Below are positions 11,213 to 28,062 of a stretch of DNA of 40,644 bases, in pieces. The translations under genes and the position numbers were made by a program. The notes beneath the pieces were generated by a model. The model ran no database searches and was not told the origin of the DNA. It worked only from the letters and a program-made list of their open reading frames with translations. The stretch lies in assembly GCA_043797665.1 (NCBI GenBank), contig JAZDPL010000090.1, positions 1 to 40,644 of the forward strand. The letters run 5' to 3'. The DNA is from Candidatus Omnitrophota bacterium (GTDB lineage Bacteria > Ratteibacteria > UBA8468 > MWAK01). Every line of letters begins with the position of its first letter. Position 1 is the stretch's first letter.

Positions 11213-11644
11213 ATGAGTAATCTGCCAAAACGCAAAGAGATTCGCCTGAAGAATTACGACTATTCTTCCAACGGTTGCTATTTCGTAACCATTTGTACTA
11301 ATAACAAACAGCCTTTCATAGAAGAACACAGACAGGAAATTGAAGGGGTTTTATTAAGCCTTCCCACAAGATTTATTGGTTTAGGTCTCGACTATTATTG
11401 CCTGCTGCCTACGCATCTTCATATCATCTTAATTCTTGAAAATGTCAAGGTTGCCCTGTCTCAGATAGTACGAACATTTAAAGCCCTGGTGACTAAACTG
11501 ACAGGAGGAAAATTTTTCTGGCAACGAAATTATTATGAGCATGTGATTAGAACGGAAAAAGCCCTGTCCAAAATCAGGGAATATATCCAGTCTAATCCCT
11601 TGGTGGAGCGGATAAGGTTTGAGCAGTTTTATGAGAATGCGTAA
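11213..11644 (+). CDS. REP-associated tyrosine transposase (RAYT; IS200-like Y1 HUH family)
   Basis: RKEIRLKNYDYS..GCYFVTICT N-terminal motif, HUH motif (THLHII), WQRNYYEHVIR and catalytic-Tyr region YIQSNP; REP clusters on both sides. Confidence 0.9.
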   Translation: MSNLPKRKEIRLKNYDYSSNGCYFVTICTNNKQPFIEEHRQEIEGVLLSLPTRFIGLGLDYYCLLPTHLHIILILENVKVALSQIVRTFKALVTKLTGGKFFWQRNYYEHVIRTEKALSKIREYIQSNPLVERIRFEQFYENA

Positions 11645-22324: not shown

Positions 22325-22456
22325 AGTACGTGTCACCCTGACCCTCGAGCGAAGCGAAGGGGAAGGGTCTCGCTTTTAACAACGGGATTCTTCCCCTTCG
22401 CTTTGCTCAAGGGTCAGAATGACAGAAGAAGAACACGGTGTGAACTGAATATTTCC
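22309..22456. repeat. Composite element: outer shell enclosing a TGTCA-type REP doublet (22331-22424); supplies the dxr stop codon
   Basis: GGTAAGTCCTCAGTGAAGTACG-[TGTCACCCTGA...TCAGAATGACA]-..CACGGTGTGAACTGAATATTTCC. Confidence 0.75.
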
Positions 22457-22469
22457 GATTATTTAATTT

Positions 22470-23123
22470 ATGAGTGAAAAGGTGAAGCGGTATATCTGGT
22501 TTGTTCTTTTTGGAATAAGTTTAGGGTATTTAGAAGCCGCGGTGGTCGTTTATCTTCGGGGACTTTGTTATCCCGATGGATTCTACTTTCCGCTCCGGAT
22601 GCCGCCGCTCAAGATTTTTTTCACCGAAGTGGGCCGGGAATTGTCAACGATAATAATCCTGTTAGGAACAAGTTATTGTGTTGGTTCAGGAATAACCCGG
22701 GTGGCATATTTTCTGCTTCTCTTTGGCCTCTGGGACATCTGCTATTATTTCTGGCTTTACATTCTTTTGAAATGGCCCCCCTCTTTTTTTACCTGGGACA
22801 TCCTCTTCTTTATTCCGATAACCTGGGCCGCTCCGGTAATCGCTCCCATAATCGTCTCTATTCTTTTTATTCTGTACGGTATTCTTCTTTTCTCTCTGGA
22901 TAGTAAAAAGAGAAAAGTAGCGGTTTCTCTCCGGGAAAAAGTAGTTGGTTTAACCGGCCTGCTCCTGGTTTTTCTTTCTTTTACCATCGATGCCTTTTTA
23001 GAGCCAACCTGCTATCTTTCCCGAATACCGGTATCTTTCCATTGGGGTATATTCATTTCGGGAATAATAATTTCTGCGGTTGTGGGGGGAAGGGTGATAA
23101 AAAAAAGCACCCGTAGAATTTAG
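22470..23123 (+). CDS. Uncharacterised multi-pass membrane protein
   Basis: About six hydrophobic segments; conserved-looking YLEAAVVVYLR, E..RE.STI and WDI.YY...WDILF.IP..W..PV.AP motifs. Confidence 0.7.
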   Translation: MSEKVKRYIWFVLFGISLGYLEAAVVVYLRGLCYPDGFYFPLRMPPLKIFFTEVGRELSTIIILLGTSYCVGSGITRVAYFLLLFGLWDICYYFWLYILLKWPPSFFTWDILFFIPITWAAPVIAPIIVSILFILYGILLFSLDSKKRKVAVSLREKVVGLTGLLLVFLSFTIDAFLEPTCYLSRIPVSFHWGIFISGIIISAVVGGRVIKKSTRRI

Positions 23124-23169
23124 TAAAGAATCGGCTTTTATGATAAAATACCGAAATGCAATTAAAACT

Positions 23170-23219
23170 GTAGGGGTCGGATTCATCCGACCCGCGGGTT
23201 CGATAAATCGAACCCCTAC
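23170..23219. repeat. GTAG REP doublet
   Basis: GTAGGGGTCGGATTCATCCGACCC-GC-GGGTTCGATAAATCGAACCCCTAC. Confidence 0.9.
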
Positions 23220-23252
23220 AGATGCCGCGCCTTGTAGGCGGGGTAATTCACT

Positions 23253-24314
23253 ATGGTAATCAACATCTTAGCGATTCTCTTTGTTTTCGGAGTCCTTATC
23301 CTGACTCACGAATGGGGCCATTTCTGGACCGCCCGAAAGGTTGGTGTCCGGGTGGAGATGTTTACCTTTGGGTTTGGACCGAAGATTTTCGGGTTTAAAC
23401 GTGGGGATACCCTGTATCAGGTAGCGCTGATTCCCTTTGGCGGTGCGGTCAAATTAGCCGGTGAAGAGGTTAGCGACAAGGAAGAGGCAAAGCCCGACGA
23501 ATACTTTGCGAAACCGGCCGGCAAGCGTGCCTTAATTCTGGTAATGGGTTCGGTCCACAATTTCCTGGCCGGTTTTTTAGTTTTCGTTCTGGTATTTATG
23601 TTAGGTGTTCAGACGGTCAATTACCGTCAGTCTCTCGTCGGTGACCTGGAAAAGGGGTTCCCCGCTGAGAGGGCCGGGCTGCAAAAAGGGGATTTAATCA
23701 TCAGTGTGGCTGGTAAAGGGGTGAACGACTGGACCTCCCTTTCCCAGGAGATTCATTCCCGCCCGGGCCAGAACGTTGTTATTAAGGTACGCCGGGGTAA
23801 CCAGACCTTAACCTTCAATATAACACCCAAACCGGAAAAAATTAAGAGCGCCGAGGGGGAAAAGACAATCGGTTTAATCGGTATAATACCTTCCGCCATA
23901 AACGAAAAATATACCCTCCTGCCGGCTTTTGTCCGGGCGGGAAAAGAGACCGTCAAAGTCACCAGCCTTATCTTTTATTACTTAGGTAAACTCTTCACCC
24001 GGCAGGTTTCCAGCCGGGAACTGGCCGGTCCGGTCGGCATTGCCCGGATGACCACCCAGTTTGCAAAGTTAGGCTGGAGTAATTTTCTCTATTTCCTGGC
24101 ATTGCTCAGCGTAAATTTAGGGGTTGCCAACCTCTTGCCCTTTCCGATATTTGACGGCGGTCACATCGTGGGCGTGGCGATTGAACGCCTGGCCGGTCGT
24201 AAACCCAACAAAAAATTTTTAGAAGTGGGTCAGACGGTCGGTTTCGGCTTAATTATCCTCCTGGCGCTCTTCGTAACCTACAACGACCTCCTCCGCATCA
24301 TCCTCCATAAATGA
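23253..24314 (+). CDS. rseP: RIP metalloprotease RseP
   Basis: HEWGHF zinc motif, FTFGFGP, IPFGGAV, PDZ domain, GPVGI, NLLPFPIFDGG. Confidence 0.95.
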   Translation: MVINILAILFVFGVLILTHEWGHFWTARKVGVRVEMFTFGFGPKIFGFKRGDTLYQVALIPFGGAVKLAGEEVSDKEEAKPDEYFAKPAGKRALILVMGSVHNFLAGFLVFVLVFMLGVQTVNYRQSLVGDLEKGFPAERAGLQKGDLIISVAGKGVNDWTSLSQEIHSRPGQNVVIKVRRGNQTLTFNITPKPEKIKSAEGEKTIGLIGIIPSAINEKYTLLPAFVRAGKETVKVTSLIFYYLGKLFTRQVSSRELAGPVGIARMTTQFAKLGWSNFLYFLALLSVNLGVANLLPFPIFDGGHIVGVAIERLAGRKPNKKFLEVGQTVGFGLIILLALFVTYNDLLRIILHK

Positions 24315-24324
24315 ATAATTCCTT

Positions 24325-24536
24325 TGTCATTCCCGCATGCGTCCCCTCTGTCATTCCCGCATGCTGTAAGCGGGAATCCAGGGGGTAGCCGCAGGCTTCA
24401 GCCGGCGGGTTTACCCTGCGCAACCCAAAATGTAGTGCGACCCCTGAAACAAGTTCAGGGCAGGCTCTTTTAGGATTGCTATAGCGAGGCTAAAAGCCCC
24501 CTATCCAATCCTATGGAAAGGGCACCCGTGCACTAC
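24325..24536. repeat. Mixed REP cluster (TGTCA partial+full pair, GTAGCCGC-type REP, GTAGTGCG-type doublet with two nested mini-hairpins)
   Basis: 24325-24380 has the same architecture as the reverse complement of 27345-27400. GTAGCCGCAGGCTTCAGCC starts at 24385. GTAGTGCGAC...GCACTAC (24432-24536) carries inserts at 24442-24464 and 24499-24528. Confidence 0.75.
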
Positions 24537-24559
24537 ATCAAATTTTTAATGCCCCTAAT

Positions 24560-24579
24560 CCCTGTGCGGAAGCACAGGG
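24560..24579. repeat. Perfect hairpin CCCTGTGC-GGAA-GCACAGGG
   Basis: 8-bp stem with GNRA-type loop; similar copy at 40530-40549. Confidence 0.55.
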
Positions 24580-24595
24580 TAATTTACCGTAAAAG

Positions 24596-24624
24596 TTGAC
24601 CAAATGCCGAAAATTGCATATACT
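24596..24624 (+). promoter_or_regulatory. Putative sigma-70 promoter of the defence island
   Basis: TTGACC, 17-nt spacer, TATACT; GGAGGT RBS before 24716. Confidence 0.55.
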
Positions 24625-24715: not shown

Positions 24716-25900
24716 ATGAAAATCGAATCCATCAGATTGAAGAATTTCAAAGCATTCAAAGACATCGAAATGCGCGAAATTCCTGGTATGTGTATTGTTG
24801 TCGGCGCAAATGGATCGGGAAAGTCCACGCTGTTCAGCGTGTTCGGATTTCTCAAGGACGCCCTGACGGATAATGTGCACGTGGCATTGACCAAACTGGG
24901 CGGCAGCCGCGGATTCCAAGAGGTGCGCAGCCGAAATGCTGACGGCCCCATTGAGATCGAGATGAAGTTCCGGGAGAATCCGTCCTCGCCGCTGATTACT
25001 TATTTCTTAGCTATATCTGAAACGAACGGGAGGCCTTGCGTTGAGCGCGAGATTCTAAAGTACCGGCGTGGCAGTAAAGGAAAGTCTTGGCATTTTTTGG
25101 ATTTTAAAAACGGCAAGGGAATCGCCGTCATGAACGAGCCGGACGAGGTTACAGATCAGACACAGTTGCGACGCGAGGAGCAAGCACTCAAGTCTGCCGA
25201 TATCCTTGCAGTGAAAGGATTGGCTCAATTTGAGCAATTTCCCGCGACCAAGGCGTTGGGCAATTTAATTGAAAACTGGCACATTTCCGACTTTCATATT
25301 CAGCGCGCCAGACCCGAACAGGAATCCGGGTACGCTGAACATCTGTCCAAGGAAGGCGAAAACCTCTCCCTGGTGACGGAATATCTGTACGATCAGCATC
25401 GCGACACATTCAACCGTATCATCGAAAAAATGAAACATCGCGTCCCGGGTATCACACATATAGAAGCGAAAACAACGGAAGAGGGACGAGTACTTCTCCG
25501 GTTCCAGGATGGGGCTTTTGAGGATCCGTTTCTTGCCCGGCATGTCTCTGACGGAACTATCAAGATGTTTGCCTATTTGGTGCTTCTATACGATCCGAAA
25601 CCCCATCCGCTCCTTTGCGTCGAGGAGCCGGAGAACCAGCTTTATCCCCAGTTGCTGGCCGAGTTGGCTGAGGAGTTTCGCGATTATGCCATGCGGGGGG
25701 GGCAAGTTTTCATCTCAACTCATTCGCCTGATTTTCTGAATGCCGCCCAAATGGACGAGGTGTTCTGGTTGGTAAAGGAAAAGGGCTACGCGACGATCCG
25801 CCGGGCCCGGGACGACGAACAGGTTAAAACATACATGCAGGAGGGAGACCAGATGGGTTACCTATGGAAGCAGGGCTTCTTCGGAGGGGCTCATCCGTAA
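24716..25900 (+). CDS. ABC-type (AAA_21-like) ATPase of an ATPase + DUF4276 pair
   Basis: IRLKNFKAF, Walker A GANGSGKST, signature VSDGT, Walker B CVEEPEN, STHS; followed by a DUF4276-like partner. Confidence 0.85.
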   Translation: MKIESIRLKNFKAFKDIEMREIPGMCIVVGANGSGKSTLFSVFGFLKDALTDNVHVALTKLGGSRGFQEVRSRNADGPIEIEMKFRENPSSPLITYFLAISETNGRPCVEREILKYRRGSKGKSWHFLDFKNGKGIAVMNEPDEVTDQTQLRREEQALKSADILAVKGLAQFEQFPATKALGNLIENWHISDFHIQRARPEQESGYAEHLSKEGENLSLVTEYLYDQHRDTFNRIIEKMKHRVPGITHIEAKTTEEGRVLLRFQDGAFEDPFLARHVSDGTIKMFAYLVLLYDPKPHPLLCVEEPENQLYPQLLAELAEEFRDYAMRGGQVFISTHSPDFLNAAQMDEVFWLVKEKGYATIRRARDDEQVKTYMQEGDQMGYLWKQGFFGGAHP

Positions 25901-26119
25901 TGAGCGAACTCGTCTTTTTTCTGGAAGAACGTTCAGCGGAGGCGCTTTTACGGCCGATTATTTCGAGAATCCTATTTCCTTCGCCTTCGCCGCTTTGCCC
26001 CGTCCTATCAGAAGATTGGCGGATCGCGGTTGATCGGGCCGCACTTGGATATCGACAATGGTCGTTCCACGAGTTTTCGACATTTCGTGAATGGCATCCG
26101 CAGATTGATGGCGGTATAG
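25900..26119 (+). pseudogene. DUF4276-like gene with internal deletion and frameshift
   Basis: N-terminus MSELVFFLEERSAEALL (ATG overlaps the ATPase stop). After ~25980 another frame reads LRRFAPSYQKIGGSRLIGPHLDIDNGRSTSFRHFVNGIRRLMAV*, matching the DUF4276-type C-terminus. Confidence 0.65.
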
Positions 26120-26133
26120 ATAAAGGGAAGCGT

Positions 26134-26400
26134 ATGAACGGTAAGAAAACCAAACTCGAACTGACATGGATTGGGAAGGAAAACCGGCCGAAGCTGGAGC
26201 CGCGTATCCTTGTCGAGGATCCGGCCAAGTCCCACCACGCGCCGTTCCGCACCGGGAAGGACGACCTTTTCGACAACCGGCTCATCTTTGGCGACAACCT
26301 GCTGGCTCTTAAGGCGCTGGAGCAGGAGTTCGCCGGGAAAATCAAGTGTATCTTCATAGACCCGCCCTACAACACCGGCAACGCGGAGGGGGGAAGATGA
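26134..26400 (+). pseudogene. Type III restriction-modification methyltransferase (Mod) remnant
   Basis: KLELTWIGK...NRLIFGDNLLALKAL...IKCIFIDPPYNTG followed almost at once by EGGR*. Only 88 aa; the SAM-binding motif and TRD are absent. Confidence 0.8.
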
Positions 26401-26819
26401 ACGGGCGACGACAAGACGAGTCAAACGCCATGAAGCCGGTAAATAGCGCCATTGTTCTCTATCAAACCGCCGACGGCCAGGTGACTGTGGATGTTTTCTT
26501 TGCGCGGGATAATTTCTGGCTTACACAGCGGACGATGGCTGAACTGTTTGGGGTGAAAACGCCGGCGGTATCCCGGCACCTGAAAAACATTTACGCCAGC
26601 GGAGAACTGACCCGGGAGGCAACTATTTCCAAAATGGAAACAGTTCAAACCGAAGGGGGGCGGCAGATTGCGCGTGAGGTGGAGTTTTACAATCTGGATG
26701 CGGCGATAGCCAAAGCTCACGAGGAATACGCAAAGTTTCGGGTCAAACAGGATCAGGGATATCTGTCCGATTTCGACCAGGCGTTTGCTAAATATCTGAA
26801 AGGCGATAACGAGCCATGA
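26397..26819 (+). pseudogene. RhuM-like protein with in-frame internal deletion
   Basis: IVLYQT.DG...WLTQ..MAELF.V....SRHLKNIY..GEL...QTEG.R...R.VEFYNLDA joins directly to the C-terminal A..KA..EY.KFR..QD..Y.SDFD. The core ISVGYRVNS..ATQFR segment is missing. Confidence 0.7.
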
Positions 26820-26878
26820 ACCCTCACGTGAACATCATCGCCAACCGGACCCGGCTCATGGGCGCGTTTATGGAATGA
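26816..26878 (+). pseudogene. Possible type III restriction (Res) subunit remnant, 20 codons
   Basis: MNPHVNIIANR resembles the N-terminus of Res subunits that follow such Mod genes; ATGA overlap with the rhuM stop; ends TRLMGAFME*. Confidence 0.4.
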
Positions 26879-26898: not shown

Positions 26899-28062
26899 AT
26901 GGTGGATAAGGATAAATCCTCCCGGGCGGTTTCAGTTGGTTCCGTAAAGATTGGCGGCAGGGCGCCGGTTTCGGTCCAGGGAATGACCAAAACCAAGACC
27001 GCTGATTATAAAGCCACTCTGAAACAGTTGCGGCGCTTGGAATCTGCCGGTGCGGAGATTATCCGGATGGCAATACGGGATGAAGGAGACCTGGTTTCTT
27101 TCCGCCGTCTCAAAAAGATAGCCGGGGTGCCGTTGGTGGCGGATATTCATTTCCGGAGTGACTTGGCTATTGGTGCCATATCCGCGGGCGCGGACAAGGT
27201 AAGGCTCAACCCCGGTAATATTTCCGAACCGAAAAAGTTGCGGGAAATTATCAGAACCGCAAAAAAAGCCGGTATCGCGATACGCATCGGCGTCAACGCC
27301 GGTTCCTTAAAATCCAGCCTGTCCCTGTATTCAGTAAGCAGGGATGGATTCCCGCTTACTACACGCGGGAATGACAGAGGGCAGGCACGCGGGAATGACA
27401 TGGAGGTAGAACGGTTAGCGGAAAAGATGGTTTCTGCTGCGGGTGATTACATATCTCTTTTTGAGCGCGAAGGTTTCCCAAATTTGATTGTTTCTCTAAA
27501 GGCTTCCACAGTACGCACGACAATTCTGGCGAACCGGCTCTTCCGCCGGCAGTTTGATTACCCCCTCCATTTAGGCATCACCGAAGCCGGACGGGGTTCC
27601 CTGGCTGTTATCAAGAGTGCGCTCGGTATCGGTTCTTTACTTCAGGAAGGTATCGGGGATACTATCAGAGTTTCTCTTTCCGAACCGCCGGAGGAAGAAG
27701 TGGAGATTGGCCGGAAGATTCTTCAGTCGTTAGGTTTACGGCATTTCTATCCGGAAGTTATATCCTGCCCGACCTGCGGTCGGTCTCAGATAGATTTATT
27801 TGCGGTTCTGGATAAGGTGGAGTCAGGCATGAGAAGATTACCCGGATATCCGGAGAGGTATGCGGGACTAAAAATCGCGGTGATGGGGTGTGAGGTGAAC
27901 GGACCCGGTGAAGCCTCGTCTGCGGATATCGGTATTGCGGGCGGCCGCGGTATGGGTCTGCTTTTTTCCCGGGGCAAGGTAATCGCTAAAGTGCCGGAAA
28001 CCGGATTGGCAGGCCGCCTTTTGCAAGAACTTAAGAAGTTCCACACAAGGAGAGACAGATGA
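26899..28062 (+). CDS. ispG: (E)-4-hydroxy-3-methylbut-2-enyl-diphosphate synthase
   Basis: VSVQGMTKTKT, PLVADIHF, RLNPGNI, IRIGVNAGSL, YPLHLGITEAG, GDTIRVSL, SCPTCGR, AVMGCEVNGPGEA. Confidence 0.96.
   Translation: MVDKDKSSRAVSVGSVKIGGRAPVSVQGMTKTKTADYKATLKQLRRLESAGAEIIRMAIRDEGDLVSFRRLKKIAGVPLVADIHFRSDLAIGAISAGADKVRLNPGNISEPKKLREIIRTAKKAGIAIRIGVNAGSLKSSLSLYSVSRDGFPLTTRGNDRGQARGNDMEVERLAEKMVSAAGDYISLFEREGFPNLIVSLKASTVRTTILANRLFRRQFDYPLHLGITEAGRGSLAVIKSALGIGSLLQEGIGDTIRVSLSEPPEEEVEIGRKILQSLGLRHFYPEVISCPTCGRSQIDLFAVLDKVESGMRRLPGYPERYAGLKIAVMGCEVNGPGEASSADIGIAGGRGMGLLFSRGKVIAKVPETGLAGRLLQELKKFHTRRDR
27345..27400 (-). repeat. TGTCA-type REP (full plus partial) inserted in frame in ispG
   Basis: TGGATTCCCGCTTACTACACGCGGGAATGACA (exact reverse complement of 13169-13200) followed by GAGGGCAGGCACGCGGGAATGACA. 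Confidence 0.9.

Follow-up and report, generated by a model that had tools for sequence, protein, structure and literature searches.

The stretch of DNA analysed here (the window, 40,644 nt) is the entire contig C47 (JAZDPL010000090.1) of G000, a metagenome-type draft genome of Candidatus Omnitrophota bacterium with 2.69 Mb in 93 contigs (GCA_043797665.1). Between the host genes rseP (23253-24314) and ispG (26899-28062) it carries a 2.6-kb insertion that holds an intact ABC ATPase gene and a 979-bp remnant, in which about 6 kb of defence cassette is now represented by little more than the starts and ends of its genes. Judged from its sequence, the remnant is mostly real and without function as a defence system, and it contains two firm cases of hollowing (DUF4276 and rhuM, with start and end kept and the middle missing), one likely case (mod) and one truncation (res). 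The hollowing pattern is repeatable in G000, where it includes host-type genes, and intermediates in which one hollow gene stands between intact neighbours occur in other bacteria. We consider it probable that the remnant arose by stepwise pseudogene erosion with an edge effect, in which the genes died singly, between neighbours that were still working, and by large deletions. The parts of the cassette are as follows, in window coordinates.

24716..25900, + strand: intact ABC ATPase of the HEC-01 candidate defence pair, 394 amino acids (PADLOC PDLC04144, 1-394/395, E 8e-208)
25900..25989, + strand: 5' piece of DUF4276 (TOPRIM-like partner), ~27-30 codons, its start overlapping the ATPase stop (PDLC04143, 1-25/190)
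25985..26119, + strand: 3' piece of DUF4276 in another frame, natural stop kept (PDLC04143, 143-185/190)
26134..26385, + strand: 5' piece of type III Mod, 84 codons, stopping just past the DPPY motif (PDLC03636, 4-83/575, E 3.6e-36)
26380..26400, + strand: likely last mod codons (EGGR-stop) with the rhuM ribosome-binding site, by likeness to Mod ends of the subfamily
26397..26819, + strand: RhuM-family gene, 140 amino acids, from homologues; its junction is covered by a contig of run X2
26816..26848, + strand: first 11 codons of type III Res, overlapping the rhuM stop; 9/11 residues equal a start found in 3/120 Res homologues
26849..26878, + strand: 9-codon tail and stop, not a Res end (no match to Res tails)

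Composition of the remnant

The initial annotation, made from the letters of the window alone, had described a locus of several kb shrunk to under 1 kb with its intergenic junctions and start/stop overlaps preserved, and the three overlaps can indeed be read as TAATG at 25898-25902, ATGA at 26397-26400 and ATGA at 26816-26819. The order mod-rhuM-res with ATGA overlaps is found intact in loci L127, L150 and L170, from which descent of the remnant from a mod-(rhuM)-res operon follows. The remnant resembles a type III restriction-modification operon with an embedded RhuM gene in order, overlaps and subfamily starts, and differs from it in keeping only 84 mod codons, 140 of ~349 rhuM codons and 11 of ~890 res codons. 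The same annotation had proposed that up to four consecutive genes were hollowed; this is clear for DUF4276 and rhuM and likely for mod, whereas res is only truncated.

The ATPase is 70-85% identical to 80 relatives. HEC-01, in the accessible text of its source paper, consists of an ABC ATPase followed by a TOPRIM-like partner beside other defence genes, and it gave no protection in the assays reported there (10.1101/2024.01.29.577857). The island shares with it the ATPase followed by the TOPRIM-like partner among defence genes, but no whole partner stands directly behind the ATPase, since ~110 central codons are gone and the gene is frameshifted. Codons 1-25 and the last ~43 codons match both ends of one ~560-bp gene located behind the same ATPase in related loci, and the two ends match a single PADLOC model in different frames, as expected if the N-terminus had been joined out of frame to the C-terminus. 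A full-length DUF4276 gene is present in 72 of the 80 ATPase-anchored loci; in six the stretch ends too early, in two there is no match, and a short version was seen in none. About 335 nt were lost, out of frame, at a tandem 6-mer near 25978-25996 (the breakpoint is approximate), and the shifted frame stays open into the mod frame, giving a single open reading frame (ORF) at 25900-26400.

In rhuM, 209 codons (627 nt) are gone in frame, so that the N- and C-terminal motifs are joined without the core, as the initial annotation had it; the junction lies at 26703-26711, probably at a 9-nt microhomology, and 140 of ~349 codons remain. A 550-nt contig of run X2 spans 26553-26848 with five differences and no gap, and the junction is thus present in an unrelated assembly. 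RhuM has been proposed as a toxin in restriction operons, according to the accessible part of one study (PMC3710099). The short RhuM scores 20.6 bits against PF13310 (cut-off 33.7; positions 1-31/252), compared with 355 bits for an intact homologue. The possibility that it is a working mini-protein is unsupported, as the junction cuts the conserved N-terminal module ahead of its last motif and the confidence of the predicted structure is low (predicted template modelling score, pTM, 0.52). The idea that RhuM is especially prone to hollowing was also dropped: a RhuM-biased search gave seven independent events in 48 clusters, but a less biased sample only 1/20.

RhuM genes elsewhere keep scraps of former neighbours (L103 on both sides, with a mod end and a res start; L098; L101). 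In restriction loci of other bacteria, RhuM pieces are flanked by duplicated hsdR or mod 3' ends or by mod-end and res-start scraps (L220, L130, L103), and the sequences of these three suggest cassette arrays in which the joins are made at gene ends. One further RhuM gene, at L228:2318-3573, is interrupted twice by similar insertions of ~115 nt.

The 5' piece of mod is up to 94% identical to Mod proteins of ~570 amino acids. A full Mod, with catalytic motif, recognition domain and S-adenosylmethionine-binding motif, is absent, the match stopping at 83/575, and a search for the missing part elsewhere in G000 returned distant paralogues only. The reading up to DPPY and the ATGA overlap into the next gene agree with the initial annotation, while the EGGR-stop that it had taken for the end of Mod is only likely to be the end of the same gene: among 84 full-length Mod homologues, 35 have GG within the last five residues and one ends in EGGR. 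If both pieces belong to one gene, ~483 codons are gone. Matches from either side of the junction extend over the 6-mer 26380-26385. The G+C content at third codon positions (GC3) is 0.80 in the mod piece, 0.58 in rhuM (Fisher p=0.0008) and 0.60 in the ATPase, unlike the 4/4 intact loci where such differences are at most 0.04, and the mod junction may accordingly join two different type III loci or alleles. The 5' end of mod is also found duplicated before accessory genes in L019:11845-14586, L127:5336-7968, P0133 and P0121, as 25-41 codons with a short tail overlapping the next start, a layout that would fit entry of cassettes through recombination at the conserved start of mod. Type III mod genes are described as recombining at conserved motifs in the accessible text of an earlier study (PMC3467074).

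The last 20-codon ORF begins like a type III Res subunit, as first noticed, and the helicase and nuclease domains are absent. That it also keeps the end of res did not hold up. The 9-codon tail showed no likeness beyond L..F to the 80 commonest tails of 120 Res homologues, and it went unmatched in searches of plasmids, of viral contigs and of 266 other loci. The comparison of tails points to truncation of the fourth gene rather than hollowing.

The missing middles were sought throughout G000, where a second copy or a misassembly might have placed them, and only distant paralogues were found; a plasmid search for the remnant returned partial matches of 70-76% only, in 10 records. The best public runs hold 5-6% of the sequence words of G000, and as contigs only. 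Of the four junctions (DUF4276, mod, rhuM, res), assembly support covers that of rhuM alone, so that the check for spanning reads is answered by the X2 contig for rhuM, with no direct read support for the other three. The X2 contig and its neighbour leave the window sequence at 26848 and 26380, which are the predicted res and mod breakpoints.

Replicates in the same genome

A first scan of G000 for hollow genes, made with 1703 foreign ORFs, returned this locus only. Self-scans of the genome gave 10 split rows at the protein level and 31 rows at the DNA level, of which C34, C46, C36, C65 and C32 were followed; the remaining rows look like repeats or differences in domain size. Many split self-matches on C40, C52, C63, C64, C61, C37 and C83 seem to lie among repeated modules of 50-300 nt joined in varying orders.

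The clearest replicate is C34:1286-1972 (L245), an 89-98% copy of C88:14191-16379 (L244) in which three consecutive genes are each internally deleted: HEPN has lost 209 of 396 nt, the nucleotidyltransferase 250 of 309 and the Gfo/Idh/MocA oxidoreductase 872 of 987, all out of frame. Every start and end is kept except two letters of the HEPN stop, for which the simulated neutral chance is 0.3%. The genes are convergent and no essential gene lies behind the three deletions. At the left edge, six rfbD codons run into a foreign tail of four codons, and this tail overlaps the start of a uroD-like gene. Of 173 codons in the kept coding pieces, 14 differ from the parent synonymously and 8 non-synonymously (p=4e-4 for an expected synonymous share of 0.27), and this synonymous excess gives some support to the view that the C34 genes stayed functional over much of the period after the two copies diverged. 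The right edge of the copy meets an IS110-family element. A 172-nt intergenic difference between C34 and its parent begins at a palindromic repeat in the parent, and the sister genome G001 differs there.

On C46 (26624-26785), a GntR/LacI regulator of 371 amino acids is reduced in frame to its 28 first and 25 last codons (53 in all) with promoter, start and stop kept; 954 of 1116 nt were lost at a 10-nt repeat, and the intact parent is on the same contig (C46:6594-7776, L238). The hollow regulator (C46:26558-26786, L239) precedes a prepilin-type DUF1559 operon, and it may serve there as a borrowed promoter and leader. At C32:12164-12590 (L248), behind a tRNA-like gene, the promoter and start of a Schlafen/AlbA-HATPase-HTH gene are joined to its sequence near codon 405, with an inexact parent. 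C36:4600-5167 (L240, an FGE-sulfatase gene) and C65:10195-10585 (L246, LacI-type, 92 nt) are partial cases without exact parents and were not counted as clean. Thus the call for other hollowed genes in the genome was answered by C34 and C46 with intact parents, by C32 with an inexact one, and partially by C36 and C65. The divergence between parent and copy is 2-11% on C34 and C46, and the hollow copies were not found in G001, which is 70% complete.

Microhomology at the eight measured G000 junctions is 10, 6, 5, 1, 1, 0, 0 and 0 nt (9, 5, 4, 3 and 2 nt at junctions elsewhere); it reaches at least 5 nt in 3/8, against a chance of 0.6% each. For the window itself, the junction repeats of 5-9 nt were deduced from homologues.

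Hollow genes in other bacteria

A survey covered 212 other loci, 2.0 Mb in all and with defence islands over-represented. Filtered for a loss of at least 30% of the gene, it gave four independent hollow cases other than RhuM: an SNF2 helicase, hsdR, a DUF1156-like gene and a methylase-like ORF. The SNF2 gene at L036:1277-1627, compared with L052:1749-4643, lost 2544 nt at a 5-nt repeat, with mod, ATPase-DUF4276 and all downstream genes intact. At L145:9013-9446, compared with L137, hsdR is hollowed and rhuM intact; the SNF2 and hsdR losses amount to 88-89%. A hollow rhuM stands between intact mod and res in L127 and L135, and L227 holds another single hollow gene between intact neighbours. Near-identical loci from gut metagenomes form a series of successive states in two adjacent genes: both are whole in L175, the upstream gene is frameshifted in L174, and it has lost 416 nt in loci where rhuM has lost 174 nt (L171) or 577 nt (L161-L164). 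L172 belongs to the same group of gut loci.

Origin of the remnant

Several separate large deletions, as opposed to one deletion or point decay, had been proposed from the window alone, and they are now replicated with known parents on C34 and C46. The further proposal of a process acting inside foreign genes is not supported in that form, as the GntR/LacI regulator and the Gfo/Idh/MocA gene, both with intact paralogues, are hollowed as well. Under stepwise erosion, each deletion would be the knock-out of one gene or a clean-up soon after, made by end-joining or slippage and often at microhomology of 5-10 nt. In a packed operon the start of a gene lies inside the last codons of the gene upstream, and its end carries the next ribosome-binding site; a deletion would leave a start and an end because both neighbours must be spared. 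Once a neighbour is dead it would already be a short scrap, so the next deletion would mostly still end in its own gene. The nuclease partner would have gone first, ahead of the ATPase, in the manner of toxin-first decay, the rhuM deletion likely predates the arrival of this piece in the genome, and polarity on ispG may be one constraint at the right edge. The pieces, their order, the lengths lost, the replicates in G000 and the intermediates in other bacteria are observations; in this account we infer the order of events, the selective filter and the repair pathway.

In neutral simulations all three window junctions survive in 0.01-0.07% of runs, a figure that is post hoc for the window, which is why replicates were sought. 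When genes are lost one at a time and deletions are barred from genes still working, 5-12% of runs keep all junctions, compared with 0.01% under neutrality. A filter on polarity applied at each step keeps them in 13/12000 and 190/11998 runs (0.1-1.6%), compared with neutral values of 0.015% and 0.065%, and so raises junction survival about 7- to 24-fold, while a filter on the end state gives no enrichment. The longest ribosome-free stretch in the window chain is 20 nt; a value of at most 30 nt arises in 27-29% of neutral runs.

Several observations weigh against stepwise erosion. The simulations are crude, with differing templates and assumptions and with sizes taken from the result, so that they speak to orders of magnitude only. 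All seven tabulated G000 cases lost 53-88% of the gene, more than uniform deletion ends predict, and further rounds of erosion, or selection favouring long deletions, therefore have to be assumed as well. Two of the three intragenic C34 junctions have a microhomology of only 0-1 nt, and the synonymous excess on C34 comes mainly from the ThuA piece (9 synonymous vs 5 non-synonymous, the rest being 5 vs 3), with the parent branch adding synonymous changes. The remnant DNA was found in 0/64 genomes of the phylum, and the decay order is thus unobserved in the lineage. In the less biased sample (301 genomes; 150 of 189 matches listed), clean hollowing accounts for 1/20 partial RhuM matches fetched; the others are mostly truncations, frameshifts, or a start joined to the tail of another gene.

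Among the alternatives is a mosaic, in which illegitimate recombination on either side would have exchanged the middle of a resident mod-res pair for a ~470-bp piece of another type III locus, made up of a mod end, the short rhuM and a res start; DUF4276 would then be the only gene hollowed here. The piece would be a candidate for short-patch double illegitimate recombination or cassette capture. Such an origin is compatible with stepwise erosion; we regard it as unlikely for the whole remnant, and for the mod junction alone its chances come close to even. In runs X1-X3 all or part of 26380-26848 is present at 97-98% identity, with X2 flanks that cease to resemble the window at exactly 26380 and 26848, and in these runs the mod piece is matched at 82-89% only and the ATPase hardly at all. 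The GC3 step from 0.80 in the mod piece to 0.58 in rhuM, set against at most 0.04 in 4/4 intact loci, points the same way, as do the neighbour scraps on both sides of RhuM (L103), the duplicated mod starts (L019, L127) and, as far as the accessible text goes, the recombination of type III mod genes at conserved motifs (PMC3467074). However, what flanks the piece in X2 might just as well be the parent's mod and res, still intact, gaps in low-depth contigs prove nothing (the missing 98% mod piece in X2/X3 is a weak hint), and C34 and C46, where both ends derive from one known parent, are left unaccounted for. An artefact of assembly or processing, through collapsed repeats, the removal of scaffold gaps or chimeric reads, might be suspected in a metagenome-type draft of 93 contigs, for which the best run holds 6% of words and the 70% complete G001 showed no hollow copies, but this seems very improbable. 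An independent assembly spans the rhuM junction, the copies on C34 and C46 are 2-11% away from their parents and hence are not collapsed duplicates, the junction repeats of 5-10 nt exceed chance, and the sequence shared at the junctions, 0-10 nt, is too little for a join in an assembly graph.

IspG is essential and Rho, which is present in G000, causes polarity. If ispG is transcribed through the island, only deletions that leave no long ribosome-free stretch may have been tolerated. The unbroken ORF chain at 24716-26878 with its 20-nt gap, the promoter-like site upstream, dxr and ispD as signs of the methylerythritol phosphate (MEP) route, and the stepwise simulation (13/12000 and 190/11998 runs) all fit such a filter. 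Equal ORF cover arises in 27-29% of neutral runs, in-frame fusions across junctions would pass the filter too, none of the three deletions on C34, in convergent genes, keeps the frame, and in-frame bias can be mechanistic according to the accessible part of Danneels 2018 (PMC6054270). We therefore hold the filter to be an improbable explanation of the pattern. The initial idea that coupling into ispG was selected survives as a possible contribution (promoter-like site, Rho, 20-nt gap, 7-24-fold), not as a general cause (28% of neutral runs; C34). Slightly less probable still is a mutational process of this organism that deletes inside ORFs and halts before gene borders regardless of the usefulness of the neighbours, for example through breaks at R-loops in untranslated parts of the message, repaired by end-joining. 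At least four loci in one genome are affected (C47, C34, C46 and C32, with C36 and C65 in part), deletion length tracks gene length, and in most kept pieces no point decay was noticed. But the same outcome occurs in unrelated bacteria (the four independent non-RhuM cases in 212 loci), joins that cross junctions are seen at edges (the res start with its tail; the rfbD start joined to another gene's tail on C34), and Cas1 and Ku, looked for in G000 (86% complete), were not found; no candidate enzyme emerged. Self-targeting by CRISPR was rejected as a cause on the same absence of Cas1. An overlooked mode of gene loss, with deletions bounded by the reading frame and halting before borders even beside dead neighbours, would be a bolder reading and stands as a long shot, about as improbable as the polarity filter. 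Its basis would be breaks in stretches that are transcribed but not translated, and chains of start-and-stop scraps, like the remnant here and the C34 copy, would be its footprint; if true, these scraps would be ready-made promoter-plus-leader units for genes landing behind them.

Setting of the island

The insertion begins with palindromic repeats and a promoter-like site, followed by the ATPase of HEC-01 type, the remnant and ispG. In 5/5 relatives with both genes on the fetched stretch, the distance between rseP and ispG is at most about 70 nt. The flanking features are:

24325..24590, no strand: short multi-copy palindromic repeats of host type, left flank on the rseP side (tens to ~150 genome self-matches per position)
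24596..24624, + strand: promoter-like site before the island (consensus match only, 10/12)
26899..28062, + strand: ispG, host gene (Pfam GcpE), starting 20 nt after the remnant

The promoter-like site would drive ispG as well; such sites in the region number 9, compared with 8.7 in shuffles, and so are not in excess. The MEP route is indicated by dxr and ispD in the window. Short palindromic repeats belonging to several families lie at 23160-23250, 24325-24590 and 22330-22420, one family having more than 400 genome self-matches. An in-frame insert in ispG at 27345-27400 consists of a palindromic repeat that is also present at 24325-24380, and G001 and G006 carry different insertions in the same loop, which suggests repeated independent events. 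A derivative of the kind of miniature inverted-repeat transposable elements, formed by internal deletion, was rejected for the remnant, which is single copy and whose island borders share only chance matches of 7-8 nt. Elsewhere in the window are a Y1 transposase-like gene (11213-11644) and, between dxr and rseP, a membrane-like ORF of 217 amino acids (22470-23123) with no Pfam match, which was not found in the eight relative stretches fetched.

Relation to known gene loss and significance

The accessible texts on deletional erosion describe bacterial pseudogenes as eroded by deletions, possibly under selection against their cost or toxic products (Kuo and Ochman 2010, PMC2916853), and neighbouring genes as sometimes lost by independent deletions (Fuxelius 2008, PMC2374718). 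The removal of dead genes by deletions is common to these cases and ours; there, as far as these texts go, most pseudogenes lost less than 20% and full removal was ascribed to deletions taking neighbours along, whereas here single deletions take 53-88%, stop before the neighbours and leave chains of junctions. Short repeats at junctions recall alternative end-joining, for which the accessible part of Danneels 2018 (PMC6054270) reports repeats of 2-11 nt flanking 43% of small deletions, an in-frame bias without selection, and no need for Ku; deletions in that study were at most 15 nt, those here 0.2-1.5 kb. Chromosomal toxin-antitoxin pairs, in what is accessible of another study (PMC13617665), decay in two steps, the effector being lost first and the partner kept for a time, which resembles the present case; the lesions there are point mutations, truncation events or deletions of small size, and here a large internal deletion. 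A literature search, with subscription journals largely outside it and supplements unread, gave no account of gene runs reduced to junctions. The mechanism is already known, and multi-gene junction-only remnants were not found described in the literature searched.

The remnant matches none of the working systems with which it was compared, and the value of the locus lies in what it records about the loss of accessory genes. Remnants that consist of junctions only escape annotation: they resemble short hypothetical proteins or are scored as partial defence genes, and a reader may mistake them for mini-proteins or for new forms of a domain. With their parents in the same genome, C34 and C46 make the question of selection, polarity or deletion mechanism directly testable. 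Scraps made of a start and a tail come to sit as coupled leaders before intact genes, ispG in the window and the uroD-like gene on C34.

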